From the NCBI GenBank assembly GCA_041652815.1, contig JBAZGN010000001.1, positions 381,855 to 445,854 of the forward strand: a stretch of 64,000 nucleotides of DNA, in the 5' to 3' direction. This DNA comes from Candidatus Omnitrophota bacterium (GTDB lineage Bacteria > Omnitrophota > Gorgyraeia > Duberdicusellales > 4484-171). Under the pieces are notes generated by a model. That model searched no databases. It was not told where the DNA came from and worked only from the letters and a program-made list of their open reading frames with translations. The position numbers and the translations under genes are program-made. Below, piece after piece: positions 909-64,000 of the stretch (position 1 is the first letter of the stretch; every line of letters begins with the position of its first letter).

Positions 909-1020
909 CAAGTAGCACGTTTTAAAAGACGTGTTACCTCCACTCCAAGTGGACTCGCCTAAATGTTTTTATATGGTGGCGAGGATACGTGTGACGTGCT
1001 ACGTATAATTGTTGCATAAC

Positions 1021-4378: not shown

Positions 4379-5675
4379 TAAGACGATAGTTCGATTTGCG
4401 CCGTCGCCTACCGGATATTTGCATATCGGCGGAGCGCGAACCTGCCTTTTTAACTGGCTTTACGCGCGCCATACAAAAGGAAAATTTATTCTGCGCATTG
4501 AAGATACTGACCTTGCGCGCTCAAAGCAGGAGTATCTTGATGAGATTTTAGAAAGCATAAAGTGGCTGGGTATGGACTTCGATGAAATTTATTATCAGTC
4601 AAAAAGGTTCGGCCTTTACCGTGATTATGCACAAAAACTTATTGATTGCGGCAGGGCTTACAAGAAAGACGACGCGGTATTTTTTAAATACGATTTTGCT
4701 AATGCTAATGTAGAAATTGATGATTTAATCCGCGGTAAAATTGTTTTTAACGAATTGCCCAAAGAGGAAGAGGTTATTATTAAAAAAGACGGCACCCCCA
4801 CTTATAATTTTAGCTGTTGTATAGACGACGCGCTTATGGAAATGTCGCTTATCATAAGAGGAGAAGACCATATTTCCAATACTCCAAAACAAATATTAAT
4901 GTATAAAGCCCTGGGGTTTTCCGTGCCGCAATTTGCGCACGTTCCCCTGATCCTATCCGAGGAAGGCGGAAGAATGTCCAAACGTTATGGTGCGACTTCC
5001 ATACGCGAATACAAAGAGGATGGTTATTTATCCTGCGCAATCGCCAACTACCTTTTACTTTTAAGCTGGTCTCCCGGAGGTAACCGTGAAATAATTACCC
5101 TTTCCGAAGCCAAAGATATTTTTGAGATAAAAAAAGTGAATAAAACTGCCGCGGCCTTTTCTATGGATAAATTAAACTGGATGAATTCAGAATATATAAA
5201 GAAAAAAAGCCCAGAGGAATACTTATCGCTGGTTGAAGAGTATTTGAAAGGCAAAAACTTTTTACCGGCTAATATTGATAAAGAATATGCTAAAAAGGTA
5301 TTCCTGCTTTTTAAAGACAGGCTTTCCAAGCTGTCGGATTTGTTTACCCGCGCCAGATTTTGTTTCTATGATGATTATACTTACGATGAAGATACCAAAG
5401 AAATCCTTGCGCGGAACTTATCCAAAGAAATAAATATACTGGCGGAAAAATTTTCTGCCCTCACAAATTTTAATCACGAAGAAGTAGAACAAGAATTCCG
5501 AAAAGTTGCAACCGATTTAGGCCTTAAAACGAAAGAGCTGGTTCATCCTGTGAGAGTTGCGCTTTCCGGAAAAAAAGTAGGCCCCAGCTTATTTGAAACC
5601 ATGGAGGTCCTTGGTAAAGAAAGAGTTGTAGCCATGTTAAAACGGCTGATTGATTATTGGGGTGCTAATACATAG
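4365..5675 (+). CDS. gltX: glutamyl-tRNA synthetase
   Basis: Class I HIGH motif (PSPTGYLHIGGAR) and KMSKR motif (RMSKRYG). The start overlaps the upstream stop by 14 nt. The protein is short for a GluRS (436 aa). Confidence 0.9.
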   Translation: MKSTDKTIVRFAPSPTGYLHIGGARTCLFNWLYARHTKGKFILRIEDTDLARSKQEYLDEILESIKWLGMDFDEIYYQSKRFGLYRDYAQKLIDCGRAYKKDDAVFFKYDFANANVEIDDLIRGKIVFNELPKEEEVIIKKDGTPTYNFSCCIDDALMEMSLIIRGEDHISNTPKQILMYKALGFSVPQFAHVPLILSEEGGRMSKRYGATSIREYKEDGYLSCAIANYLLLLSWSPGGNREIITLSEAKDIFEIKKVNKTAAAFSMDKLNWMNSEYIKKKSPEEYLSLVEEYLKGKNFLPANIDKEYAKKVFLLFKDRLSKLSDLFTRARFCFYDDYTYDEDTKEILARNLSKEINILAEKFSALTNFNHEEVEQEFRKVATDLGLKTKELVHPVRVALSGKKVGPSLFETMEVLGKERVVAMLKRLIDYWGANT

Positions 5676-7475: not shown

Positions 7476-7570
7476 TCCATAGTCGATAGCCCATAGTAAA
7501 AACTGTGGACTATGCCCCCCCTGCGGGGAGGCTTCGCTCTCGACAGTCGATAGTCGTTAGTATAAATAAA
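7473..7570 (+). repeat. ~95-bp repeat element that begins at the stop codon of the upstream gene; copy 1 follows glnS
   Basis: Shares aTAGtccatagtcga(t/c)ag ... cccctg(c/t)ggggaggcttcgctctc with 15014-15112, which lies after proA. In both copies the host gene's TAG stop codon is the first triplet of the element. Confidence 0.6.
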
Positions 7571-7620
7571 AATAACCTTTTCTATGAAACTATCGACTAT
7601 CGGCTAACAACTGGTTTATG

Positions 7621-7749
7621 TGTTTAGGGTTTTATGTTTACCCCTCGCGCCTGTATATCGGGTAAATTTCTCGGCCTGCGGCCAGGAAATTTACCCGAAG
7701 TGCTTCGGGGTTAATTTTCCGCCCAAGGCGGAAAATTAAGGAGGTATAA
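7621..7749 (+). promoter_or_regulatory. structured 5' leader (three hairpins) ending in an AAGGAGG RBS, upstream of the small lipoprotein gene; copy L
   Basis: Inverted copy of 8354-8480. The hairpins are gggtaaatttc...gaaatttaccc, ccgaagtgcttcgg and ttttccgcccaaggcggaaaa. The last one abuts the RBS. Confidence 0.55.
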
Positions 7750-7932
7750 ATGCGTAAGGTATTTTTGCTGGTGTTAATTCTGGTGTTTGTTTCACTTCTT
7801 AATGGCTGCGAAACGGCAAAGAATACTGCATACGGTGTGCATCGTATTGCGGCGGGCGTAGCCGATGATGTTTATAATACCGGTAGGAATTTGAAAAGAG
7901 CAGACAACTGGATGGAAGAGAATACCTGGTAA
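7750..7932 (+). CDS. small lipoprotein, entericidin-like (signal peptide plus lipobox LNGC)
   Basis: Strong RBS (taaggaggtataaATG). N-terminal signal peptide with an L-N-G-C lipobox. The GCETAKNT..G motif resembles the entericidin EcnA/B family. Confidence 0.6.
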   Translation: MRKVFLLVLILVFVSLLNGCETAKNTAYGVHRIAAGVADDVYNTGRNLKRADNWMEENTW

Positions 7933-8047: not shown

Positions 8048-8353
8048 TTATCTTTCACAATACTTGAGATGCTTGCCTTCCGGGTAATATTTTGCTCTTT
8101 TTTCGAAGTGCCCAGGCACCCAAACGTAACCCCTGCGATGGTTTACATGCTGCCAATAGCCTGGTATCCAGATCAAACGCCTGTCTCTCGAAAAATCCAC
8201 CTTAATATTTAAAGCCGATAACCCCACGCTTATTTTAGGCGTGGTTTTTATTGTTACTTTTTTGTCATACCGGTTTCTATCGCGGCTGTAAGCTGGACTA
8301 GCGCACATAATAATAATAAGCCCTGCAATTAAAGCTACAAATACTTTTTTCAT
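8048..8353 (-). CDS. small secreted protein of unknown function
   Basis: N-terminal signal peptide (MKKVFVALIAGLIIIMCASPAYS). It is preceded, on the minus strand, by the same structured leader and RBS as 7750-7932. Confidence 0.55.
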   Translation of the reverse strand: MKKVFVALIAGLIIIMCASPAYSRDRNRYDKKVTIKTTPKISVGLSALNIKVDFSRDRRLIWIPGYWQHVNHRRGYVWVPGHFEKRAKYYPEGKHLKYCER

Positions 8354-8480
8354 AAACCCTCCTTAATGAGCCCCGACTTACGTCGGGGCGAATTAACCCC
8401 GCAGCGCTTCGGTTAAATTTCCTGGTTGCAGGCACAGTCTCTTACCAGGAAATTTAACCGATATACAGGCGCAAGGGGTA
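8354..8480 (-). promoter_or_regulatory. structured 5' leader, copy R; inverted duplicate of 7621-7749
   Basis: Its reverse complement aligns with 7621-7749. Several differences are compensatory within the hairpin stems. Confidence 0.55.
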
Positions 8481-9089
8481 AATTACTATAAATTTTTTGG
8501 AATAAAGCACATTATTTTTCCAAGCTGAAGATACAGGAAAAATGTTGGCCTCATTTAATTAGACGTGGCATGCCTTTAAAAAGTCTACAATCTTGATTGG
8601 TTCAAGCAGGTAAAAGGGGTTAAAAATAAAGATTCCACGGCGTTTTACCGTGGAATCTTAAGAAGAAGAGGGGGCGATATTTTACCCTAAGCACTTAACT
8701 CAGGCATTCAGGACTTGATCGCCCCCTGGGGTTAGTTTAAAACAAAACCCCAAATGTTGGCCTGGATGCCGCATTGAGAAAGTTTAGCCTTAGGGCAATT
8801 AAGATATAGCACATCAGAAAATATTTTTCAAGGTGAAAGGGCAAGTTTATTCCCTTTACCATAATACCCTGCCTGCTCGCCCGCCGTAAGGCGGGCAGGG
8901 CGGGCGAGGCTGCGCCCGTGGATGAATGTGGAGTGGGATGTCGCCCCACGGGGCGTATTGCAAGGTACCACGGGAAGCCTTCGGCGTACCCGTGGGGCTC
9001 CAGTATAGCTGTTTTACATTGAAAACAAAAAAGCTTTTGATAATAAAAACATTAGAATTGGGAATTATTTATGGTAAAATAAAACTATA

Positions 9090-9418: not shown

Positions 9419-9490
9419 TGCCCGGTAGTGTAATTGGCAACATGACAGACTCTGGATCTGTTGTTTCTGGTTCGAGTCCAGACCGGGCAG
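9419..9490 (+). tRNA. tRNA-Gln (anticodon CUG)
   Basis: Hand-folded cloverleaf. Acceptor tgcccgg/ccgggca with a U1:A72 pair and G73 discriminator. D stem gtgt/acat. Anticodon stem acaga/tctgt with loop ctCTGga. T arm tctgg-ttcgagt-ccaga. No encoded CCA. Confidence 0.8.
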
Positions 9491-9591
9491 TTCTGCTTCG
9501 CCCCTCACTAAGTGAAACGCTGGTAGGGCTTCGCAGAAACTATTCCTTAGAAGCTCTACTAGAGTTTAATATCTTAAGGAGCGAAGAAGAA

Positions 9592-9834
9592 ATGAATATA
9601 GTATATATCCTAACAAGTAAAAATTATCCGGAGCGATATTATATAGGTTTTACTCAAGATTTAGAACGCAGAATAAAAGATCATAACAGCGGTGATTCTC
9701 TATACACAAAACGCTATATGCCTTGGGAATTACAAACTTATATTACGTTTAAAAATAAACTCCAGGCAGAGGAATTTGAGAAATATCTTAAATCAGGTTC
9801 TGGATTTGCATTTTTAAAACGAAGATTTCTATAG
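9592..9834 (+). CDS. small GIY-YIG nuclease-domain protein (UPF0213-like)
   Basis: GIY-YIG motifs: VYILTS...YYIGFTQDLERRIKDHN. Start chosen at the internal Met of the longer ORF, because the upstream part of that ORF overlaps the tRNA. Flanked by inverted repeats gttctgcttcgcc / ggcgaagcagaac. Confidence 0.6.
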   Translation: MNIVYILTSKNYPERYYIGFTQDLERRIKDHNSGDSLYTKRYMPWELQTYITFKNKLQAEEFEKYLKSGSGFAFLKRRFL

Positions 9835-10163
9835 GCGAAGCAGAACTGTCCCTGCGAAGCCTGACCCGATGTTCTATTCTCTGAAGGGCGAAGCAGGACA
9901 GCCGTTCTTAATTTCAAATCAAAATTTTCGTACTTTTAGTGCTGATTTTTATGGAAGTAAATATGACCCAAACCGAAGTATTCGAATTTTTGAATAAAAA
10001 TCCCGTAATGTATTTAGCAACCTGTTGAATAATAGAAACTAATTTTTCACCCAAAGATCATATCAAGCTTTATTGATTAAATAAGAGAACAGAGAAGAAG
10101 TAAAATATTTTCTGTTATCTGTAAACTGTACTCTGTACTCTTTCCGAGCGAAGCGAGGAAAAC

Positions 10164-11033
10164 ATGCTAACCCAAGAATTAAAAACAAAAGTTTTAAAAG
10201 CCCAGAAAAATGAGCTTACCGAACATATAATTTATAAAAATCTCGCTTCGGTTATAAAAGATAAACAACAGAGCGAAATTTTAATCAGAATATCAAACGA
10301 AGAGTTGACGCATTATGAGTTTTTTAAAAGCATAACACAAGAAGAAGTTGCACCGGATAGTTTTAAGATTTTTCTTTATGTTTTTATTTCCCGCATCTTT
10401 GGCTTAAATTTTGGCTTAAAACTTATGGAAAATGGAGAAGACCTGGCGCAAGATGCCTATGATAGATTAAAAGAAATTTCACCGCAGATAGATGATATCA
10501 TCAAGGATGAAGAAAAACACGAAACAGAATTAATTGATTTAATCAACGAAGAACGCCTGAAATATGTAAGCTCAATAGTTTTAGGCTTAAATGACGCTTT
10601 GGTAGAATTAACCGGTGCTTTAGCTGGCTTTACTCTTGCCCTGCAAAATACAAAGCTTATTGCAATTATCGGTTTAATTACAGGAATTGCCGCTTCTATG
10701 TCTATGGCCGCTTCTGAATATTTATCTACCAAACACGAAGAAACCGATAAAACGCCCCTTAAAGCATGTATTTATACCGGCATTACCTATGTAGGCACAG
10801 TAATGTTTCTGATTTTTCCTTATCTTTTGTTCAAAAATATATTCGTTTGCCTCGGTATCACAGTTACGAACGCCCTTTTATTGATTCTTATTTTTACTTT
10901 CTATACATCAGTTGCCAAAGGGCTTAGCTTTAAGAAAAGATTTTTCGAGATGGCTAGTATCAGTTTAGGCATAGCAGTAATCAACTTTTTTATAGGCTTT
11001 GCAATAAGAAAAGTGTTTGGTGTTGAAGTTTAA
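10164..11033 (+). CDS. ferritin-like/VIT1 (CCC1) family membrane iron/manganese transporter (MbfA-like)
   Basis: N-terminal ferritin-like/rubrerythrin-like domain, then C-terminal VIT-family TM helices. Architecture typical of membrane-bound ferritin-like proteins. Confidence 0.65.
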   Translation: MLTQELKTKVLKAQKNELTEHIIYKNLASVIKDKQQSEILIRISNEELTHYEFFKSITQEEVAPDSFKIFLYVFISRIFGLNFGLKLMENGEDLAQDAYDRLKEISPQIDDIIKDEEKHETELIDLINEERLKYVSSIVLGLNDALVELTGALAGFTLALQNTKLIAIIGLITGIAASMSMAASEYLSTKHEETDKTPLKACIYTGITYVGTVMFLIFPYLLFKNIFVCLGITVTNALLLILIFTFYTSVAKGLSFKKRFFEMASISLGIAVINFFIGFAIRKVFGVEV

Positions 11034-11257: not shown

Positions 11258-11566
11258 ATGTTTGCCATAGTTGAAATAGGAAAAAAACAGTATTTCGTAG
11301 AAAAAGGGCACTCTTACAAGGTAGAGAGGCTTTCTCAAAAGACCGGCGAAATTACCTTTGATAAGGTTCTTCTTGTAGCCGGCGATGACAAGGTTAGCCT
11401 TGGTATTCCTTATGTTAAGGGTGCAAAGATAACAGCGCAGATAAACGGCGAAGAAAAGGCAAGTAAAGTTTTAAGCTATAAATACCGCAGGCGCAAGAAA
11501 TCACGCCGGATACGCGGCCACAGGCAAATTCATACCCTCCTTAAAATTTCTGATATCATAGTATAA
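11258..11566 (+). CDS. rplU: 50S ribosomal protein L21
   Basis: MFAIVEIGKKQYFVEKG... L21 signature. Preceded by a TTGACG-17-TTAATAT promoter-like sequence and a long imperfect hairpin leader. Confidence 0.9.
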   Translation: MFAIVEIGKKQYFVEKGHSYKVERLSQKTGEITFDKVLLVAGDDKVSLGIPYVKGAKITAQINGEEKASKVLSYKYRRRKKSRRIRGHRQIHTLLKISDIIV

Positions 11567-11725
11567 ATAACCAATAACCAAGATACAAATTCCAAACAAA
11601 TTCCAATATTCAATGACCAATGATCAAACGGTTTATTATTTTTTGTTTGGTTATTGAATATTGATTATTGGCCATTGTTTGGTTATTGTATCTTGGAGCT
11701 TGGTTATTTATAATAGAAATAACAT

Positions 11726-13765: not shown

Positions 13766-15016
13766 ATGCAAAAATACGTAAAAAATCTAGTCAAAAAAGC
13801 GAAAGAGGCCAGCTATAAGCTATCGCAGCTCGATAGCGAAAAAAAGAACGCCATACTATTTCAAATGGCTGATTATCTCATCGCGAATAAGGATTTTATT
13901 CTTAAAGAAAACGCGAAAGATGTTAAAACCGCCATAAAAAATAAATTACAGCAAAGTTTCATCGACCGCCTTACGCTTTCCGATAAACGTTTAAATGAAA
14001 TGAGCAACTCTCTAAAAGAAATTGCAAAGCTGCCCGACCCCGTTGGAAAAGTTATCGGCGAGTGGCAACGGCCAAACGGCCTTAAGCTTAAAAAAGTAAG
14101 AATTCCTATCGGAGTTATCCTCGTAATTTTCGAAGCGCGGCCCAATGTAACGAGCGACTGCGTGGGGCTTCTTTTTAAATCTTCTAACGTTGCGATACTT
14201 CGCGGCGGAGGAGATTCTATAAATTCAAATAGAGCCATAGGAAAAATTCTTAAAAAAGCAATACAATCCAGCGGCATAAACTTCGAGCCTTTTTTTATCA
14301 TCGAGAAAACAGAACATAAAATAGTTGATTTGTTACTTTCCGAAAATGAATACATAGACCTGGTTATTCCAAGAGGCGGAGAAGCTCTCATACGTAAAGT
14401 CGTAGAAAGTTCCAAAATTCCAGTAATAAAACATTATAAAGGAGTATGCCATATATTCGTAGATAAGGCATTAGACATAGGCAAAGCCTTACGCATTTGT
14501 GTAAATGCCAAAGTGCAAAGGCCTTCAGTGTGCAATGCCGTTGAAAAAATTCTTGTGCATCAAGATGTGGCAAATAATTTCCTTCCTTTGTTAAAAAAAG
14601 AACTTGATAAATATAAAGTGGAAATAAGAGGGGATAGCAAAACCTGCCGGATATTAAAAGGCATAAAAAAAGCCAAAGATGCGGATTGGTTTGCTGAATA
14701 CCTCGATTTGATAGTTACGATAAAAGTTGTGGCAAATATCGATAGTGCAATTTCTCATATAAATTTTTACGGCTCTCACCACACAGACGCAATTGTCACG
14801 AAAGATTTAAGCAAAGCGGCAAAATTTACAAAAGAAGTTGATTCTGCCTGCTGTTTCGTAAATATTTCAACCCGTTTTAGCGACGGCTTTCAGTTTGGCC
14901 TAGGCGCTGAGATAGGCATATCTACCGATAAAATCCACGCCCGCGGCCCAATGGGGCTTACGGAGCTTACTACTTACAAATGGGTGGTTGAAGGGGACGG
15001 GCAGGTAAGGGAATAG
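13766..15016 (+). CDS. proA: gamma-glutamyl phosphate reductase
   Basis: Aldehyde dehydrogenase-like fold with a catalytic Cys context (PSVCNAVE). Follows proB. Confidence 0.9.
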   Translation: MQKYVKNLVKKAKEASYKLSQLDSEKKNAILFQMADYLIANKDFILKENAKDVKTAIKNKLQQSFIDRLTLSDKRLNEMSNSLKEIAKLPDPVGKVIGEWQRPNGLKLKKVRIPIGVILVIFEARPNVTSDCVGLLFKSSNVAILRGGGDSINSNRAIGKILKKAIQSSGINFEPFFIIEKTEHKIVDLLLSENEYIDLVIPRGGEALIRKVVESSKIPVIKHYKGVCHIFVDKALDIGKALRICVNAKVQRPSVCNAVEKILVHQDVANNFLPLLKKELDKYKVEIRGDSKTCRILKGIKKAKDADWFAEYLDLIVTIKVVANIDSAISHINFYGSHHTDAIVTKDLSKAAKFTKEVDSACCFVNISTRFSDGFQFGLGAEIGISTDKIHARGPMGLTELTTYKWVVEGDGQVRE

Positions 15017-15112
15017 TCCATAGTCGACAGTCGATAGTTCACAGATTTAAAACTATGGATTATGGTCCCCTGTGGGGAGGCTTCGCTCTCTATGGACTGT
15101 GGACTAAATTAT
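15014..15112 (+). repeat. second copy of the stop-codon-containing ~95-bp repeat element; follows proA
   Basis: See 7473-7570. The proA TAG stop codon is the first triplet of the element. Confidence 0.6.
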
Positions 15113-16413: not shown

Positions 16414-16486
16414 AGCTTTCAGCCATCAGCTTTCAGCTGAGGACTGACGACTGAGAGCTGACAGCTTTTAGAAAGGAGTTAACCAA

Positions 16487-18437: not shown

Positions 18438-18660
18438 AATAGCCATCAGCCATCAGCTTTCAGTCTTCAGCAGCTGACAGCTGATGCCTGAACGCTGAAA
18501 GCTGATAGTTATTGACAAAAATAATTCTTTAAGAGATAATTGTTGCCCTGTAAACGCCTTGATTGTTATCAGATATCGCATATCTAGCAAGGCAACTTCA
18601 GGGAAAAAATTAGATATTTAATTCTGGGTTAACCTGGGATAAATTGGAGGTTTAAAGCTA

Positions 18661-35134: not shown

Positions 35135-35185
35135 ATATTTCCCATTTTTCAAATATTATTAAATTCGTAAACGGAGGGTTTTGAA

Positions 35186-37114: not shown

Positions 37115-37179
37115 AAAATAGCCCATTAAAAATTACTATTTTTCAAATATTATTAAACTTGTAAACGGAGGGTTTAAAA

Positions 37180-39297: not shown

Positions 39298-39372
39298 ATC
39301 TTCTAATTTGATAAAAGGCAAAAATAAATTTGACAAATCATCAAATTTATGCTATACCAAAATTGTTAGCGT
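39298..39372 (+). promoter_or_regulatory. second copy of the conserved promoter element; TTGACA (39329-39334), 17 nt, TGcTATACC; upstream of the T2SS cluster with a ~200-nt 5' UTR
   Basis: About 85% identical to 23371-23445. Confidence 0.7.
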
Positions 39373-39577
39373 TTTCAATGATTGTTATGGGTCCCCGGAA
39401 TTGATAACAAGCTCTTGCCGAGTATCATTTTGCGGATAATGAGGAAGCCACGGAATCCGGGATAAAAGGGCAAAGAGTAATTTCGGGGACACATTAACCA
39501 ATTACCAAGGTATTTATACTGTTTCCCTTCCTGGGCGGTGAAAAGAGGAAATAGCAAGTTCAAACGTTTAGATTAAT

Positions 39578-41287: not shown

Positions 41288-41349
41288 CGCATGGCACAAA
41301 GCGCATAGCGTAAAAAATGATTCTTATGCTATGCGCTATGCGAATAAAT

Positions 41350-42639: not shown

Positions 42640-42735
42640 CAGAAACACAGATGATCACAGATGGCAAATCGCAGATGATCGCAGATGAATTTATCTGTGA
42701 TCATCTGCTTACGAATCTGTGATTATCTGCGTAAC
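42640..42735 (+). repeat. word-based hairpin repeat of the cacagatgatc family, between gspF and gspG
   Basis: cacagatgatcacagat...atctgtgatcatctg is a perfect inverted repeat. Related copies lie at 47425-47510 and 53028-53125. Confidence 0.7.
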
Positions 42736-42750: not shown

Positions 42751-43179
42751 ATGAGAAGGTATAAATTTTCGCAAAGCCGCTTAAAATTTCTTAATCGTAG
42801 CCGTACCCGTGGGTTTACATTAATAGAGCTGATGCTTGTTGTGATCATAATCGGTGTGCTTGCGGCAATGGTAATGCCGCGGCTTGTAGGCCGTTCAGAG
42901 CAGGCAAGAATTGTCGCTGCCAAAGCAGATGTAGACGCTAACCTGGCAACTGTTTTAGATTTATATGAAATGGATATCGGCCATTACCCAAATACTTTAA
43001 GCGAACTAAAAACTGACCCGGGCGCAACCGGCTGGAAAGGGCCTTATTTAAAAAAAGAAGCCAAAGACCCTTGGGGAAGAGAGTATGAGTATAGCCTTGA
43101 AGCTACTGAAGATAAAGATTATAAGCTCTGCAGTAAAGGCCCGGATGAGGTGAAGACCGAAGATGATATTTGTAATTAA
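42751..43179 (+). CDS. gspG: major pseudopilin GspG
   Basis: Prepilin processing site and N-terminal helix GFTLIELMLVVIIIGVLAA. GspG-type globular domain (YPNTL...GPYL...DPWG..Y). aaggag RBS. Confidence 0.85.
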   Translation: MRRYKFSQSRLKFLNRSRTRGFTLIELMLVVIIIGVLAAMVMPRLVGRSEQARIVAAKADVDANLATVLDLYEMDIGHYPNTLSELKTDPGATGWKGPYLKKEAKDPWGREYEYSLEATEDKDYKLCSKGPDEVKTEDDICN

Positions 43180-43366
43180 CAGAGAACAGATAACAGAGGA
43201 CAGAGAACATAAAGAAGTTAAACAGTTGCGATTACGCCGCTCGTATCGGTTGCGTTAAGTGTAAGTCGTCATTAAGACGCAACCGATAAACGAGAAACGA
43301 AACGAGCTCGCCCGCCTGTGGCGGGCAGGCAACCGATAGACGTAAAACGTAACCGCAGTATATTTT

Positions 43367-43858: not shown

Positions 43859-43955
43859 GGAAAGATGATAATCCGTACCACGTATCAGGTAACAGGTATC
43901 GCGTCTCTAAAAACGTGTTACATGTTACGTACGACGCGATACATATTGGCTAGAT

Positions 43956-44986: not shown

Positions 44987-45940
44987 ATGCGTAAGAAAGG
45001 TTCAATTTTGCTGGTAAGCTCATGGATTTTGGCAATACTTGTCATATTCGCATTAAGCTTAGGTTTTCGTGCCCAAATAGTGTTAAGGCTTTCGCGATAT
45101 CAAAAAGACGGTCTTGAGGCTTCCTGCCTTACAAATGCCGGCATAAATCGTGCATTGCATGAGCTTACGGGAGATACAAATGATTATGATGCACTTTCCG
45201 AGAGCTGGTCTGATAATGAACAAATATTTGGCAAAATTTCTCCAAATGAAGACAAAAAAGAATTCTGCACAATAGGTTATACGAATACTGAAGGCAAAGA
45301 GGTATTCGGTGTAATGGATGAGCAAAGCAAAATCGACATAAATAATTCCGGTATCAGAGTGGTAGAGGAATTGTTTAATTCAAAGGGATTTGATACGGAT
45401 GCAAAAGATTTTTCTAAATTATTTAGAGAGTGGATTAGTTCAAATGTAGAATCCGGCGAGGAGAAAAAAATATTTAAAAACGCGCCTTTGTCGGCCAAAG
45501 AAGAGCTTCTCCTGGTATTAGAGTATTTTTATAAAGACAGGCAAAAAGCCCATGAAGTATACGATACCATAGAAGATTTAATAACTGTTTATAGCGATGG
45601 AAAATTAAATATCAATACGGCACAAGAAGAAGCCTTACTTATTCTTGCAAAGGCTAATGCAGAAACCGGGGAAGAAAAATTAACGGCCGAGCGCCTTACC
45701 GAAAAGATTATAAAATTGCGCGAAGAAAAAAGCTTTTTTAAAGACATAATTAGCATTAGCTTCGATGCTGGTTTTGATACTAATGAGCTTTCTCTTTGGA
45801 ATAAAATAAGTGCGTTTTTGGATGTAAAATCCGATTATTTTAGAATTAACGCACAGGCAGTTACAAAAGATACCTTAAAGCAGGTAAGCACTGTTTTTAA
45901 TCGTGACGCAAAAAAAATTATATATTGGCACCAGAATTGA
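44987..45940 (+). CDS. minor pseudopilin GspK-like protein
   Basis: N-terminal TM helix without the conserved Glu5. Size and position match GspK. Confidence 0.55.
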   Translation: MRKKGSILLVSSWILAILVIFALSLGFRAQIVLRLSRYQKDGLEASCLTNAGINRALHELTGDTNDYDALSESWSDNEQIFGKISPNEDKKEFCTIGYTNTEGKEVFGVMDEQSKIDINNSGIRVVEELFNSKGFDTDAKDFSKLFREWISSNVESGEEKKIFKNAPLSAKEELLLVLEYFYKDRQKAHEVYDTIEDLITVYSDGKLNINTAQEEALLILAKANAETGEEKLTAERLTEKIIKLREEKSFFKDIISISFDAGFDTNELSLWNKISAFLDVKSDYFRINAQAVTKDTLKQVSTVFNRDAKKIIYWHQN

Positions 45941-45990
45941 GTTGGCACAAATTTCCACGAATTAGGGACGAATTACCACGAATAAAAATT

Positions 45991-47427: not shown

Positions 47428-47519
47428 TCACAGATAATAAATCACAGATGACCACAGATAAAATCATCTGTGATCATCCGCTTACAAATCTGTGCTGATC
47501 TGTGTGGAGCGAAGCGACT

Positions 47520-59239: not shown

Positions 59240-61732
59240 ATGCCGCAGGATACTATTTATTTAATTGACGGCACGTCCATATGCTACCGTTCTTTTTACG
59301 CAATTTCGCTCTCTAATTCAAAAGGCCTGCCAACGGGTGCTGTATATGGTTTTTATCAGACGCTTAAGAGGATTATTTCGAAATATAACCCTGTATATAT
59401 AGGTATATGTTTCGATGTTTCACGTAAAACTTTTCGCCAGGAAAAATTCAAAGAATACAAAATCCAACGTCCGCCAACGCCCGATGGCTTAAAACAACAG
59501 ATACCGGTTATAAAGAAATTGATAAATTTATTAGGGATAACCTTGATAGAGAAAGAGGGTTTTGAAGCAGACGACATTATCGCAACTATTTCAAGAAAAG
59601 CCGCCTCAGAGAACTTACCTGCTATTATTGTAAGTTCGGATAAGGATATGTATCAGCTGCTTGATAATGACAGGGTAAAAGTTTACGAGCCGGTTAACGA
59701 CGAATTATTAGATGAAAATAGTTTTAAGAAAGAATTTGGTTTCGCCCCGCAGCTTATAATCGACTATCTTTCTTTGGTCGGTGATAGTGTTGATAATGTT
59801 CCGGGAGCAAAAGGAATAGGCAAGGTTGGCGCTTCAAAGCTTATTGCTCAATTTGGTACGGTTGAAGAAATATTCGATAACATAGATAAAGTTTCTCCAA
59901 AAATGAAGGACATACTTTTAAGAGAAAAGGAAAACATTTTTTTAAGCAAAGACCTGGTTACCTTGCGTGATTGCAATATCGATTTAAGCTGGCAGGATTT
60001 AAAAATTAAAGAACGCAATGCCCGCGAGCTTTATGGTTTATTTAAGGAGCTTGAATTTAAGAGCCTGCTTAAAGATATACCGGCGCCTTCTATTAACATA
60101 AAAATTGATATTAAAGAAAAAATTCCCGATGATTTTGAAAAAATTGCGGTTCGTGATAATTTATTTTTTTATGCAGACGGAACAACAGCTTATATTTTAA
60201 GCCCGGATAGAAATTGTACCTACAAAACAGAGATAAATAGCATCAAAAATATAATTTCATCCGAGAATATCAAAAAAATTTCGTATGATTTTAAATCGCA
60301 GCTGCATAATCTTAATTCAATTGAAGACTTATGGTTTGATGTAAAAATAGCAGCCTATCTGCTTGATTCTGCCCTTGCTGACTATGAATTGAGCAGCTTA
60401 GTTTCGCATTACTTGGGCGAATTAGTACCTGAAGTACCGGCTCAAGCCATTCCCCATTTTGTCAGTAAGCTTTATGAGATATTCAATAAACAACTTAAAG
60501 ATACCGGCCTGGATAAGCTTTTTTTTGAAGTTGAGATGCCGCTTGTGCGGGTTTTGTATGACATGGAGCGTTGCGGAATAAAGATTAATACGGAAGCCCT
60601 TTATGAGCTGGGCAAGGAAGTCGATGCTAAATTAGAGAATTCAAAAAAAGCTATATTCAAAATTACAGGCAAGGAATTTAACCTTAATTCACCAAAACAG
60701 CTAAGCGAAGTGCTCTTTAAGGACCTAAAAATTGCCCCGGTTAAAAAAACAAAAACAGGTTTCTCTACCGGGGAAGAAGTTTTAGAAAAATTATCCGTAA
60801 GCCATGAAATAGCAAAGTTTATTTTAGAATACAGGGAATTAAATAAATTGAGAACAACCTATATAACTCCGTTGATTGAAACGGTAAATCTTAACGCAGG
60901 CATACTTTACGCGCAATTTAATCAAACCGCAACCGCAACCGGCAGGCTTTCAGGTTCATCTCCTAATTTGCAAAGCATTCCGGCAAAGGGCGAATTTTCT
61001 ACGAAACTTCGAAGCGCATTTGTCTCTTCGTTTGAAGATGGCTTCATAGTTTGTGCTGATTATTCGCAAATTGAGCTGCGTATACTCGCGCATTTTTCGC
61101 AGGATGAGAAACTTAAAGAAGCGTTTAACAAAAATACAGACGTTCATCGCTATACCGCAAGCCTTCTTTTTGGTAAGCCTGAGGCTGATATAAACGAACA
61201 TGAGCGTAATGCGGCAAAAACGGTAAACTTTGGAATAACTTACGGAATGAGCGCTTACGGCCTTTCCCGGGAGTTGAATGTAGGTATTACTGAAGCGGAT
61301 AATTTTATTACAGATTATTTCAATAGGTATCCAAAAGTAAAAGGCTATATACAGGCAGTTTGTACGCAAGCACAAACAGAAGGATACGTTAAAACAATTT
61401 TAGGTAGGCGCAGGTATCTTCCTGATTTTAAAAGTAATAACCCTCAAGCAAGAGAATTTGCCCAGCGCCAGGCAGTAAATTCTCCTATCCAGGGTTCAAG
61501 CGCTGACCTTATTAAATTGGCGATGGTGAAAATACATGAAGAATTTAGGAAGAATAATCTAAAGTCCAGATTAATAATGCAGATTCATGATGAACTTGTA
61601 TTTGATGTGCATCCCGATGAAGTAGATAAGCTTAAGGAAATCGTTAAGCGCGACATGGAACAAAGCATAAAATTAAGTATCCCTGTAGAAGTTAAGATAA
61701 AAGTTGGGAAAAATTGGGGAGAGGTCCAATAA
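59240..61732 (+). CDS. polA: DNA polymerase I (5'-3' exonuclease plus polymerase; 830 aa, Taq-like size)
   Basis: N-terminal 5' nuclease domain. Polymerase motif A (DYSQIELRILAH), motif B (RRxAKxxNFGxxYG) and motif C (QIHDELVF). Confidence 0.95.
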   Translation: MPQDTIYLIDGTSICYRSFYAISLSNSKGLPTGAVYGFYQTLKRIISKYNPVYIGICFDVSRKTFRQEKFKEYKIQRPPTPDGLKQQIPVIKKLINLLGITLIEKEGFEADDIIATISRKAASENLPAIIVSSDKDMYQLLDNDRVKVYEPVNDELLDENSFKKEFGFAPQLIIDYLSLVGDSVDNVPGAKGIGKVGASKLIAQFGTVEEIFDNIDKVSPKMKDILLREKENIFLSKDLVTLRDCNIDLSWQDLKIKERNARELYGLFKELEFKSLLKDIPAPSINIKIDIKEKIPDDFEKIAVRDNLFFYADGTTAYILSPDRNCTYKTEINSIKNIISSENIKKISYDFKSQLHNLNSIEDLWFDVKIAAYLLDSALADYELSSLVSHYLGELVPEVPAQAIPHFVSKLYEIFNKQLKDTGLDKLFFEVEMPLVRVLYDMERCGIKINTEALYELGKEVDAKLENSKKAIFKITGKEFNLNSPKQLSEVLFKDLKIAPVKKTKTGFSTGEEVLEKLSVSHEIAKFILEYRELNKLRTTYITPLIETVNLNAGILYAQFNQTATATGRLSGSSPNLQSIPAKGEFSTKLRSAFVSSFEDGFIVCADYSQIELRILAHFSQDEKLKEAFNKNTDVHRYTASLLFGKPEADINEHERNAAKTVNFGITYGMSAYGLSRELNVGITEADNFITDYFNRYPKVKGYIQAVCTQAQTEGYVKTILGRRRYLPDFKSNNPQAREFAQRQAVNSPIQGSSADLIKLAMVKIHEEFRKNNLKSRLIMQIHDELVFDVHPDEVDKLKEIVKRDMEQSIKLSIPVEVKIKVGKNWGEVQ

Positions 61733-61839
61733 AAGGTTGCTCGCCTGCCGTAGACAGGCAGGTTACGTAGGTTACGAACGTTACAATAAATCAAGTGATT
61801 TAAGTGTAACCTTCGTAACATATAATATAAGGAGGTTCA

Positions 61840-63222
61840 ATGAAAATAGCTTTGTGTTCGTCAGAAGTTTTTCCGTATGCTAAAACAGGAGGCCTTGCGG
61901 ACGTAACAGGTGCGCTTCCCCTTGCTTTAGCTAAAAATGATTGCGAAGTAAAAGTATTCATGCCTCTTTATAAAAAAATAAAACCGCAAAAAATGTTCAG
62001 TGATTACGGCCTTACAAAAGAAGGAAATGTAGAATTTTATTTTATAAAAAATGATAATTACTTTATGCGTGATGCGTTATACGGAACTGCGCAGGGCGAT
62101 TACGGTGATAATCTTGAAAGATTTTCTTTTTACAGCAGAAAGGTTTTGGAACTGCTTAAGCAGTTAAACTTTAAGCCGGATGTAATACACAGTAATGACT
62201 GGCAGTCCTCCTTGGTAAATATTTATCTTAGGACTATTTATAGCAGCGATGATTTCTTTCGTAAGACGGCAACTATCCTTACTATACATAATCTCGCGTA
62301 TCAGGGTTTATTTGGCCGGGATAAATATCCGGTTCTTGGCTTATCTTGGGATTATTTCAATATGCATTGCCTTGAATTTTATGAAAAAATAAATCTTCTT
62401 AAGGGCGGCATTGTATTTTCTGATATTGTAAGCACAGTAAGCCCTACTTACGCAAAACAGATACAGACCACTGATTATGGCTGTGGGCTTGACGGGGTAT
62501 TAAGGGAAAAAAGAGATAAGCTGACAGGCATACTTAATGCGATTGATTATGACGTTTGGAATCCGGCAAACGATAGTTTGATTTATAAGAATTATTCTCC
62601 TAAAAACCTTGAGGATAAGGCTATCAATAAAAAAATGTTTCAAAAAGAATTAGGCCTTAAGGTTTCCGAAGATACTCTTCTATTGGGAATGGTCAGCCGC
62701 CTGGCAGAGCAAAAAGGCGTAGATATACTTTCGGGTTCCCTCGATTATCTTTTAAAGAAATATCAAATAGTAATACTAGGTTTAGGAGATGAAAAATATC
62801 ATAAGATTCTTAAGAAGAAAGCTGAGAAGTTTAAAAAATCATTTTCACTAAACTTAATGTTTGATGAAAAAATCGCTCACCGTATATATGCGGCCTGTGA
62901 TGGATTCCTTATGCCTTCAAGGTTTGAACCCTGCGGGCTATCTCAAATGATAAGTTATAAATATGCAACTGTGCCTATAGTGCACCGTACTGGAGGCCTC
63001 GCCGATACCGTTATCGATGTGAAAAACCAAGGCGGAGGGTTTGTGATTGATAAGTATACAAGCGATGATTTAAGTTCCGCGATAGACAGGGCAGCCAAGC
63101 TTTTCAAGGATAAAAAAAGTTGGCCTAAGCTGCTTAAAAAAATATCACAATATAATTTTTCCTGGGCGCAGGCAGCAAAGCATTACGTTGATATGTACAA
63201 AAGAGCAAAAAATTCTAGGTAG
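61840..63222 (+). CDS. glgA: glycogen synthase (GT5)
   Basis: N-terminal KTGGLADV motif. Lys-x-Gly-Gly family signature. Length 460 aa. Confidence 0.9.
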   Translation: MKIALCSSEVFPYAKTGGLADVTGALPLALAKNDCEVKVFMPLYKKIKPQKMFSDYGLTKEGNVEFYFIKNDNYFMRDALYGTAQGDYGDNLERFSFYSRKVLELLKQLNFKPDVIHSNDWQSSLVNIYLRTIYSSDDFFRKTATILTIHNLAYQGLFGRDKYPVLGLSWDYFNMHCLEFYEKINLLKGGIVFSDIVSTVSPTYAKQIQTTDYGCGLDGVLREKRDKLTGILNAIDYDVWNPANDSLIYKNYSPKNLEDKAINKKMFQKELGLKVSEDTLLLGMVSRLAEQKGVDILSGSLDYLLKKYQIVILGLGDEKYHKILKKKAEKFKKSFSLNLMFDEKIAHRIYAACDGFLMPSRFEPCGLSQMISYKYATVPIVHRTGGLADTVIDVKNQGGGFVIDKYTSDDLSSAIDRAAKLFKDKKSWPKLLKKISQYNFSWAQAAKHYVDMYKRAKNSR

Positions 63223-63335
63223 ATTCAGAGGACAGATGACAGAGCACAGAGAACAGAGAAAAAGTAAAAAAATATTCTGTACTCTGTTTTCTGTAATCTG
63301 TACTCTGTAAACTAACCGAGCGAAGCGAGGTTAAC

Positions 63336-63935
63336 GTGCCTGTATTTGGTTTAACGGGAAATTTAAACTGCGGGAAAAGCACCGCCCTTAGGTTACTTAA
63401 AAAAAAGGGTGCTTGTATTTTTGACGTCGATAGTAAGATTCACGAATATTATAAAAACAAAAAAGGCTCAATTTACAAGAAAATATCTGCGCTCTTTCCG
63501 CAAGCAATTTTCGATGGGCTAATTGACCGGCGAGAACTTGGAAAAATAGTTTTTTCAGACAGGAAAAGCCTCTTAAGGCTTGAGGCAATCGTGCATCCGG
63601 CTGCCGTGAGAGATTTAAAATCATGGGTAAAAAACGCCAGGCAATCCGGCAGGGTTTGTGTGACAGAAGTCCCGTTACTTTTTGAAAAAAATCTCGAAGG
63701 TATCTTTGACGGAATAATCTTGGTTTATGTAAAAAGAGATGTCTTCTTAAAGAGAATAAAAAAGAATCTTAAACTTTCCGCAGCCACAGCTTCCGCGCGC
63801 TTAAGATGCTTTAATCCGGTTGAAAAGAAGATGAAAAAGGCAGATTTTATTATAAACAACAGTTTCGATATGGAAACTTTAAAAAGGGAAATAGATATTT
63901 TGTGGGGTAGATTGAAACAATATAAACACGAATGA
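63336..63935 (+). CDS. coaE: dephospho-CoA kinase
   Basis: P-loop GLTGNLNCGKST. Size matches CoaE. GTG start with an upstream gagg RBS inside a conserved ccgagcgaagcgagg motif. Confidence 0.8.
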   Translation: MPVFGLTGNLNCGKSTALRLLKKKGACIFDVDSKIHEYYKNKKGSIYKKISALFPQAIFDGLIDRRELGKIVFSDRKSLLRLEAIVHPAAVRDLKSWVKNARQSGRVCVTEVPLLFEKNLEGIFDGIILVYVKRDVFLKRIKKNLKLSAATASARLRCFNPVEKKMKKADFIINNSFDMETLKREIDILWGRLKQYKHE

Positions 63936-64000
63936 TCACGAATGCAAGACGAATTCCCACGAATTTATTCGTGGAAATTCGTTCCAAATTTGTGGATATT

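Follow-up and report, generated by a model that had tools for sequence, protein, structure and literature searches.

The gaps between co-directional genes in this part of a Candidatus Omnitrophota genome hold a real and well-defined feature, imperfect palindromes that are neither ordinary terminators nor locus-specific, and that are best described as heptamer-repeat hairpins or REP-like elements. In the explanation that we favor, and that we consider moderately probable, they belong to several families of dispersed REP/REPIN- or MITE-like imperfect palindromes whose arms are arrays of units grown by slippage, and which are co-transcribed and would be probably intercistronic stem-loops or else near-neutral passengers. 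The architecture as such has already been described for Xanthomonas and for cyanobacteria; what is encountered here is many families that are not G-rich, stems of six pairs plus one free position, dispersed homologous copies, nesting, and a very high density.

The hairpins and their anatomy

The window, by which we mean the whole 64,000-nt stretch that was analysed, carries all of its genes on the + strand, the majority of them housekeeping: porABG, gltX, glnS, tRNA-Gln, rplU, obg, proBA, pgm, plsC, rpsA and tyrS, together with a type II secretion/pilus cluster, two galT paralogues, gap-pgk-tpi-secG and polA. An island at 21.8-39.5 kb encodes Fic and SpvB-like proteins, a protein of 2110 aa, and glycosyltransferases. 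The phosphoglycerate kinase (PGK) of the window shares 80-92% identity with its counterparts in Candidatus Omnitrophota MAGs. A contig that is 100% identical to the window (JALOCC010000004.1, GCA_023227945.1, locus L090) supplied a further 8.1 kb upstream, which brings the stretch examined to about 72 kb, and another 2.3 kb downstream came from the same genome (locus L084).

The first-pass annotation had reported that nearly every intergenic spacer carries a palindrome made of 6-11-nt words, repeated directly and then as reverse complements. The words are indeed present in all 20 of the intervals for which they were listed, and 18 of these intervals form strong hairpins with folding energies of -12.6 to -53 kcal/mol; the remaining two, 43175-43215 (dG 0) and 45940-45990 (dG -4.1), hold direct arrays only. 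At the focal locus, 42640-42735, two 21-nt direct blocks are followed by two inverted blocks, each block containing two 10-nt words, and none of 200 shuffles folded as well as the native sequence (dG -51.4 kcal/mol, z -9.57). When the minimum free energy (MFE) z-score was computed over the first 110 nt past the stop codon, 18 of the 38 spacers of at least 40 nt fell below -3, as against 4 of 150 coding windows, and 22 of the 38 fell below -2. The enrichment is real, but hairpins of this kind occur in roughly 50-60% of the longer spacers, and 'nearly every spacer' was too strong a phrase because of these 18 in 38 and because the 21.8-39.5 kb island contains no such hairpin at all. Beyond the window, five more lie in the 8.1 kb upstream, belonging to the same families, and three in the 2.3 kb downstream. 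A search of the whole window against Rfam at gathering score matched tRNA-Gln as its sole hit and none of the palindromic elements.

The elements of the window are listed below, the hairpins and the paired or core-flanking arrays without strand and the two direct-only arrays on the + strand.

42645-42732: focal element, cacagatgatc family (10-nt unit); 34-bp two-tier hairpin; gspG starts 19 nt further on, at 42752
47429-47504: cacagatgatc family copy, beginning 1 nt past the stop of a PilM-like gene
53028-53118: cacagatgatc family copy between the two galT paralogues, beginning directly at the end of the stop codon
13699-13753: cagct family (7-nt unit), proB/proA gap; stem of a repeated 6 bp plus 1 mismatch
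16414-16468: cagct family copy, gap between a nadD-like gene and pgm
18438-18513: cagct family copy, 3' of plsC; adjoins a sigma-70-like promoter match (11/12) at 18512-18540, upstream of rpsA
55461-55518: cagct family copy, gap/pgk junction
912-1002: acgtg/gttac family (unit GTAWCAC), porA/porB gap; apex with two nested GC hairpins
43874-43955: acgtg/gttac family copy between two pseudopilin genes
56728-56799: acgtg/gttac family copy, pgk/tpi gap; orthologous copies in L083, L003 and L004
20222-20353: gttacgaa family (9-nt unit), rpsA/tyrS gap; right arm with nested hairpin
61768-61817: gttacgaa family copy, 3' of polA; preceded by a GC hairpin at 61740-61762
10084-10157: acagag family hairpin with the module ccgagcgaagcgagg, the module just upstream of a start codon
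63226-63329: acagag family hairpin with the module ccgagcgaagcgagg; 28 bp, strict 6+1 pattern
43180-43215, + strand: acagag heptamers, direct array only; first unit includes the stop codon
43240-43294: ggttgcg-type hairpin, its words also found in L004 and L083; overlooked earlier
45954-45986, + strand: cacgaat 10-nt words, direct array only, without hairpin
63936-64000: cacgaat family hairpin, cut at the window end and complete in L084
5688-5781: atccgcgga family (10-nt unit); 37-bp hairpin, gltX/glnS gap
1763-1844: ctagatg family (7-nt unit), porB/porG gap
41288-41342: gcatagcgc hairpin, gspE/gspF gap
11564-11710: ataacca/tggttat heptamer hairpin, 3' of rplU; 56-bp stem; overlooked earlier
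7476-7600: ccatagtc heptamer arrays flanking the conserved core cccctgcggggaggcttcgctctc; overlooked earlier
15014-15106: second copy of the ccatagtc plus GC-core element, 3' of proA; overlooked earlier

The position of the elements between co-directional genes, as first described, is borne out: each fills the gap from a stop codon to the ribosome-binding region of the gene that follows. Stems typically begin ~0-4 nt past the stop codon. Of 20 elements that were measured, 16 have their 5' foot -3 to +7 nt from the stop codon, which sometimes falls within the first unit, and the 3' foot lies a median of ~15 nt (in most cases 0-28 nt) from the next start, leaving room for a ribosome-binding site only. 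Most elements are found inside conserved operons (porABG, proBA, gap-pgk-tpi, gspEFG). They measure ~55-150 nt with stems of 20-56 bp, the whole element being an inverted repeat, and at least nine different words are in use (cagctat, gtaacac, acagag, ctagatg, ccatagt, ataacca and others), few of them with G-tracts.

Words of 6-11 nt proved an imprecise description, as the spacers are periodic at 7 nt and some families at 9 or 10 nt. At lags 7, 14 and 21 the spacer autocorrelation rises to 0.329, 0.314 and 0.291 over a baseline of ~0.27, with values of 0.374 and 0.38 in the first 60 nt past stop codons, and the 7-nt period is confined to spacers, the genes showing a 3-nt period only. Taken one by one, 14 elements have a best period of 7, six of 10 and two of 9. 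In the stems, the commonest distance between interior loops is 7 nt (30 of 120), the commonest helix block is 6 bp long (43 of 196), and A·A, A·C or C·A account for most of the single mismatches. One functional idea that the periods invite, that units of 7 or 10 nt (both 1 modulo 3) provide backup stops in all three reading frames, was rejected, since such stops occur within 30 nt about as often in spacers with a hairpin (5%) as in the remainder (5.6%).

The pairing pattern also bears on how the arms were made, for which both slippage and templated copying had been proposed. In period-7 elements six phases pair at frequencies of 0.77-0.94 and the seventh at 0.39, close to a random expectation of ~0.38 (a back-of-envelope estimate); the seventh position is usually A·A or A·C, and this speaks against the copying of one arm from the other as its reverse complement. 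Slippage fits better, both with the 7-nt periodicity and with arms that have identical units yet mismatch at a fixed phase. The latter are seen in an Elusimicrobiota locus (L007), where the units of some arms are all alike and each fails to pair with the other arm at one fixed phase, which is expected from unit-wise amplification within arms and not from arm-to-arm copying. The arms would then lengthen through slippage of whole units inside each arm.

Dispersed families and their turnover among relatives

The first-pass annotation regarded the elements as locus-specific, a description that had to be abandoned: copies can be aligned over their whole length, are found in either orientation and belong to families that recur in other species, and by sequence comparison the elements are dispersed repeats and not locus-specific constructions. 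There are 2-5 copies per family in the 72 kb, and copies of one family are 82-89% identical over 50-70 nt, with the linkers that do not belong to any word included. Five copies of the cacagatgatc element, one of them inverted, align over their full length, again with linkers, to a ~95-nt consensus at a mean column identity of 75%. The ccatagtc element has a conserved GC core and is also present as a flipped copy, and a ccgaRcgaagYgagg module placed directly upstream of a start codon trails hairpins of two different families. Elements are in some places nested within one another (window 912-1002 and 20222-20353, and the gap/pgk gap of L083). A fixed polarity relative to gene direction, which had first been inferred from the words, was given up when the alignment revealed both orientations. 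In a metagenome scan meant to estimate copy number, an exact 22-nt apex matched two contigs only and so told little. The copies are fairly diverged, and the elements are not high-copy, near-identical repeats.

Whole elements may spread by DNA-level copy-and-paste or by recombination that leaves no visible target duplication. No consistent target-site duplication was found at the flanks of the five aligned copies, filled and empty sites being too diverged to compare, and no common end tag was seen, the feet differing between families. No transposase or RAYT-like (IS200/IS605-like Y1) gene was present among ~40 window proteins searched with Pfam and the Pfam labels of the upstream region; the only nuclease among the proteins scanned is a small GIY-YIG gene, which carries inverted repeats of its own. 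For the explanation we favor, the lack of a transposase or RAYT among the proteins scanned in 72 kb, of a target-site duplication and of an end tag are points against, as are the fair divergence of the copies, the absence of unit-number polymorphism and the absence of a G·U excess on the sense strand.

Comparison of orthologous spacers, which had been proposed as a way to see whether hairpins turn over, does reveal presence, absence and replacement at individual junctions across related species. Synteny is conserved in these relatives while the content of the spacers varies (junctions across L001-L006, L081 and L083), as at three junctions:

galT1/galT2: cacagatgatc element in the window; 25-nt spacer with no hairpin in L001 and L081; direct attag heptamers in L004; aaactct hairpin in L006
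gap/pgk: cagct in the window and in L083; acgtg in L003, the sister of L083; other words in L002, L004 and L006
pgk/tpi: acgtg in the window, L083, L003 and L004; absent in L001, L002 and L081

The PGK tree places L001, L002 and L081 amid lineages that carry the pgk/tpi element, so that loss is the simplest reading. As relatives lack elements at equivalent junctions, the elements can be dispensed with and may for the most part be selfish or neutral. The species compared are distant, with synonymous sites near saturation: 4-fold degenerate sites are 0.36-0.56 identical between them, and still the word families and their register persist. The orthologous pgk/tpi hairpins are 65-80% identical, a figure inflated by the periodic frame, since paralogues score about as high as orthologues. 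Covariation at these hairpins carries little weight in either direction, double changes being counted in only 2 of 24 pairs from four sequences.

Within the species, contigs from three samples have identical hairpins with no unit-number polymorphism, which rules out hypervariable, contingency-type repeats at the strain level and indicates that slippage is not frequent today. At greater distance, loci of Elusimicrobiota and Acidobacteriota have an equivalent heptamer-hairpin architecture, with elements between tRNA genes as well in the Elusimicrobiota locus L007. Period-7 segments number 23 per 100 kb here and 30 in Elusimicrobiota loci, compared with 2.3 in Acidobacteriota and none in Halanaerobium, and wherever a group has two or more periodic segments, lag 7 is the commonest in the range 5-12.

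It could be argued, along the generative, locus-specific lines of the first-pass annotation, that no dispersal is needed, and that the elements are functionless by-products which slippage during replication and template switching at hairpins produced separately in every spacer, with shared words arising by convergence. The heptamer period does match a known excess of heptanucleotides that is ascribed to polymerase slippage (Mrazek 2007, cited through PMC4692102 and PMC4679880), and arms with identical units but a fixed mismatch between them, the absence of a strand-specific RNA signal and the dispensability of the elements in relatives would all be accommodated. What such a process would not be expected to yield is copies that align end to end through their non-word linkers, some of them inverted, families held in common by species with near-saturated synonymous sites, or composite modules that recur (hairpin with ccgaRcgaagYgagg; ccatagtc with its GC core), and length polymorphism is absent within the species. 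We therefore consider an origin in place unlikely.

Termination, transcript stability and binding at the DNA level

The first-pass annotation held that the elements are mostly without U-tracts and hence not classic intrinsic terminators, and on both counts our results agree. The 8 nt past the stem average 1.7 T and 4.5 A, and none of 19 tails has five or more T; most of the elements lie inside operons, and the ~5-28 nt left before the next start give no room for a promoter. A terminator scan of the window called no hairpin element on the + strand. The U run that should follow a terminator stem is lacking, and most elements do not stand at the end of a transcription unit, an exception being the element at 18438-18513, which does precede the promoter-like site of rpsA.

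There remains the proposal that they are intrinsic terminators or attenuators of the U-tract-less ('I-shaped') kind, in which the long hairpin alone would pause or release RNA polymerase, or would act with Rho, and so set the ratio of neighboring genes. It gains something from elements that begin right at stop codons, from the strong promoter-like site for rpsA directly after 18438-18513, from the Rho gene located just downstream of the window in the same genome (L084), and from the lack, in any part of the window, of an excess of canonical sites of hairpin plus T-tract (19 against an expected 22.8, and 27 against 18.7). Yet the tails are A-rich and never T-rich (0 of 19), and most elements separate operon partners (porA, porB and porG; proB and proA; gap, pgk and tpi; gspE, gspF and gspG) with 0-28 nt to the next start; moreover, relatives dispense with hairpins at equivalent junctions, both orientations occur without strand asymmetry, and the stems far exceed those of terminators in length. 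The terminator reading is weakened by these observations, and its U-tract-less version must be rated as rather unlikely.

Since most elements leave no room for a promoter, and since many of them stand between subunits or successive enzymes of one operon, RNA polymerase must read through them. In the explanation that we favor, that of dispersed palindromes, they would be transcribed within polycistronic mRNAs and would fold into stable stem-loops that do not efficiently stop the polymerase. By analogy with known repeats, a role at the RNA level is suggested, and the most likely effect would be that of an intercistronic or 3' barrier to exonucleolytic decay after endonuclease cleavage. It is also possible, as has been proposed for REP and STRR hairpins, that the fold brings a stop codon and the next start site together. 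A gene for RNase Y is located just upstream of the window and, with that for Rho downstream, forms a context that fits a decay-barrier role. A sense-strand RNA signature was not detected: G·U pairs number 42 on one strand and 41 on the other, and summed folding energies are -723.8 and -731.8 (Wilcoxon p 0.63). With equal folding of the two strands and elements in both orientations, there is no sign of selection on the sense RNA, and any effect should be independent of orientation.

Gyrase and IHF bind BIMEs in E. coli, and it is conceivable that the elements offer serial binding sites, with one unit read every 7 nt, for cold-shock or S1-type single-strand binders or for DNA partners such as gyrase and IHF, the word cores being the recognition sites. 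Units, copies and species agree in their word cores while one position per unit is free, solo direct arrays without a hairpin partner do exist (43180-43215 and 45954-45986), and CspB binds heptamer repeats with one protein per heptamer (cited in PMC4679880). But at least nine unrelated word families would each demand a specificity of their own, units spaced by 7 nt do not keep in phase for binding to duplex DNA, and no candidate factor was identified, so that we regard binding arrays as improbable, more so than termination. For the explanation that we favor, a further point against is that the word cores themselves are conserved and not pairing alone, which a role in stability would not by itself account for.

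Imperfect palindromes of variable sequence, situated directly past the stop codons of co-directional genes, also bring to mind the attC sites that trail each gene cassette of an integron. The genes here are housekeeping genes whose order is conserved across species, no integrase is nearby, the ends of the elements as read directly from the sequences do not match RYYYAAC/GTTRRRY boxes, and in L007 elements also lie between tRNA genes; conserved synteny effectively refutes attC-like recombination sites, to which we attach almost no probability.

Known repeats and the meaning of the finding

The comparison with REP/BIME elements made in the first-pass annotation was apt as to where the elements lie, how large they are and that they come in several copies. 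A REP measures 20-40 nt, is present in many almost identical copies that carry a GTAG/CGTC tag, and has a RAYT transposase of its own; REPINs are long hairpins formed from two inverted repeats, and the roles known for REPs include protection against 3' exonucleases and effects on translation when they lie near a stop codon. Like REP, BIME and REPIN sequences, the elements described here are multi-copy imperfect palindromes, extragenic or intercistronic, without a U-tract, in either orientation, and clustered or nested. They differ in that their copies are 75-89% alike and so fall short of near-identity, in that no common end tag of the GTAG/CGTC type is found, and in the internal 7-nt periodicity of their arms. 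With intrinsic terminators they share a stem-loop shortly past the stop codon, but not the U-tract, and they differ further in their 20-56-bp stems with periodic mismatches and in being internal to operons.

A close architectural match is in Xanthomonas, which has ~70-75 convergent inverted pairs of GGGAATC repeats per genome. These are transcribed and occupy gaps between genes of one direction, where they either overlap the stop codon or lie no more than 50 bp from it; related species differ in the length and sequence of the repeats but retain the type (Rehm et al. 2015, PMC4692102). Here too, tandem heptamers followed by inverted copies, that is, convergent paired arrays of 7-nt units in intergenic DNA, lie near the stop codon between co-directional genes. 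In Xanthomonas a single G-rich word is involved and is read as forming G-quadruplexes, whereas here no one quadruplex-capable word dominates: there are at least nine families, mostly not G-rich and with few G-tracts. Units of 9 and 10 nt, nesting and dispersed copies that are homologous from end to end are further differences, as are the phyla concerned (Omnitrophota and Elusimicrobiota).

The heptanucleotide STRR repeats of cyanobacteria form a hairpin between hupS and hupL whose role is unsettled, with transcript stability or translational coupling proposed (PMC2670836), and in Nostoc few STRRs form inverted pairs (PMC4692102). These are likewise 7-bp intergenic or intercistronic repeats able to fold into a hairpin, but mostly direct arrays of a few fixed heptamers, whereas here the inverted form dominates and there are many families. 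More broadly, of all long simple repeats it is heptanucleotides that many bacteria have in greatest excess, for which polymerase slippage has been proposed (Mrazek 2007, cited through PMC4692102 and PMC4679880), and TAACTGA repeats of Beggiatoaceae are direct and mostly upstream of start codons (PMC4679880). The 7-nt excess in intergenic DNA, slippage as its proposed source and the overlap with stop codons are shared with such repeats; these are direct, and the elements here are inverted pairs that form hairpins. As stated in PMC4692102, heptameric repeats had no detailed literature, and our search found no publication linking Omnitrophota with hairpins of this kind.

The over-representation of heptanucleotides between bacterial genes has been a standing question since the cyanobacterial STRRs, and the genome studied here is a dense, multi-family example. 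As a G-quadruplex explanation cannot apply to it, and as the hairpin with its 6+1 pattern dominates, a general cause that does not depend on the word is indicated. It is tempting to go further and to envisage a 'heptad-zipper' class that spans phyla (Omnitrophota, Elusimicrobiota and Acidobacteriota here, Xanthomonas and cyanobacteria earlier), in which helices of 6 bp with one free base per 7 nt would be made and maintained by a dedicated mechanism, either unit-wise copying or slippage on both arms or a heptad-reading factor, and would serve as a general intercistronic module for RNA processing or stability, the word families being a heritable repertoire and not debris; we put this forward as speculation that is unlikely to hold. 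In practical terms the elements inflate intergenic length in the small genomes of Omnitrophota, can mislead predictors of terminators and sRNAs, and may fragment or mis-join metagenome assemblies, among which one chimeric contig was encountered. If it is true that they modulate mRNA decay inside operons, they would constitute a widespread and unannotated layer of expression control in uncultured phyla.

A mini-hairpin sequence and a start-codon module beside the word hairpins

The heptamer GCGAAGC is the sequence of a GNA mini-hairpin of very high stability. The window contains 21 copies against an expectation of 8, a count reached in none of 100 shuffles; examples lie at 7531, 9835, 9854, 9888, 10148, 15080 and 63320. 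Roughly half of the copies fall within the intergenic 12% of the window, often adjoining the word hairpins, the imperfect palindromes of tandem short units found in gene spacers. A conserved module, ccgaRcgaagYgagg, is followed after 5-6 nt by a start codon and comes after hairpins belonging to two distinct families. The gene downstream seems to take its GAGG ribosome-binding site from this module. Its copies are:

Window 10143-10166: module copy
Window 63313-63338: module copy
L090 (contig JALOCC010000004.1, 100% identical to the window) 5430-5451: module copy

Heptamer and octamer word hairpins are also seen at 16320-16700 of L007, a locus from an Elusimicrobiota MAG, where they lie between putative tRNA genes recognized by eye; the architecture therefore probably does not depend on the stop codons of protein-coding genes.

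Small genes bracketed by inverted repeats

Immediately after tRNA-Gln lies a small nuclease gene, flanked on both sides by a 13-bp inverted repeat, gttctgcttcgcc / ggcgaagcagaac (9481-9847):

9595-9834: GIY-YIG nuclease gene, 79 aa (Pfam E 4.7e-15)

The arrangement resembles that of a small mobile element of the GIY-YIG type that has inserted at a tRNA gene.

Elsewhere, a pair of inverted-repeat arms (7637-7716 and 8391-8482) encloses ~700 bp, the arms totaling ~90 nt: 34 nt with 94% complementarity and 56 nt with 80%. The features of this region, two convergent small ORFs among them, are:

7750-7932, + strand: small ORF between the arms
8048-8353, - strand: small ORF with a weak WXXGXW match
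8224-8244, + strand: hairpin and T-tract site
8659-8629, - strand: hairpin and T-tract site

The arms and the ORFs that they enclose might together form a small cassette, either invertible or mobile.

Relatives' loci

In L083, a locus from a different species (90% PGK identity), galT1 follows tyrS within ~2.5 kb, so that the segment at 21.8-52 kb of the window, with its Fic, giant-protein and type II secretion cluster genes, is elsewhere or absent there. L084 (ENA ERZ27247363 k141_2442605) is 99-100% identical to L083 over its first ~2.4 kb, through pgk and tpi; beginning with the spacer that precedes polA (~3857), the four spacers that were read match window spacers at 59008-64000. L084 is a recombinant, or else its assembly is chimeric. 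In the contigs L085 and L087, strain mismatches are likewise clustered at contig ends.

Repeated upstream stretches, some of them candidate promoters or operators

Three sets of repeated sequence lie upstream of genes:

21575-21813: tandem copies of a ~70-nt unit, upstream of the Fic-domain gene
35144-35181 and 37138-37175: 38-nt stretch, 95% identical, upstream of two adjacent genes (one for a PMT-family glycosyltransferase, the other the ORF that follows it)
23370-23442 and 39305-39377: 73-nt stretch, 88% identical, upstream of the SpvB/giant-protein genes and of gspE

The ~70-nt units contain ttgaca and catatatg palindromes and may be a repeated promoter or operator. TTGACA is also present in the 73-nt stretch, which may serve as a common promoter or operator, co-regulating the secretion system with the giant proteins that are its putative substrates.
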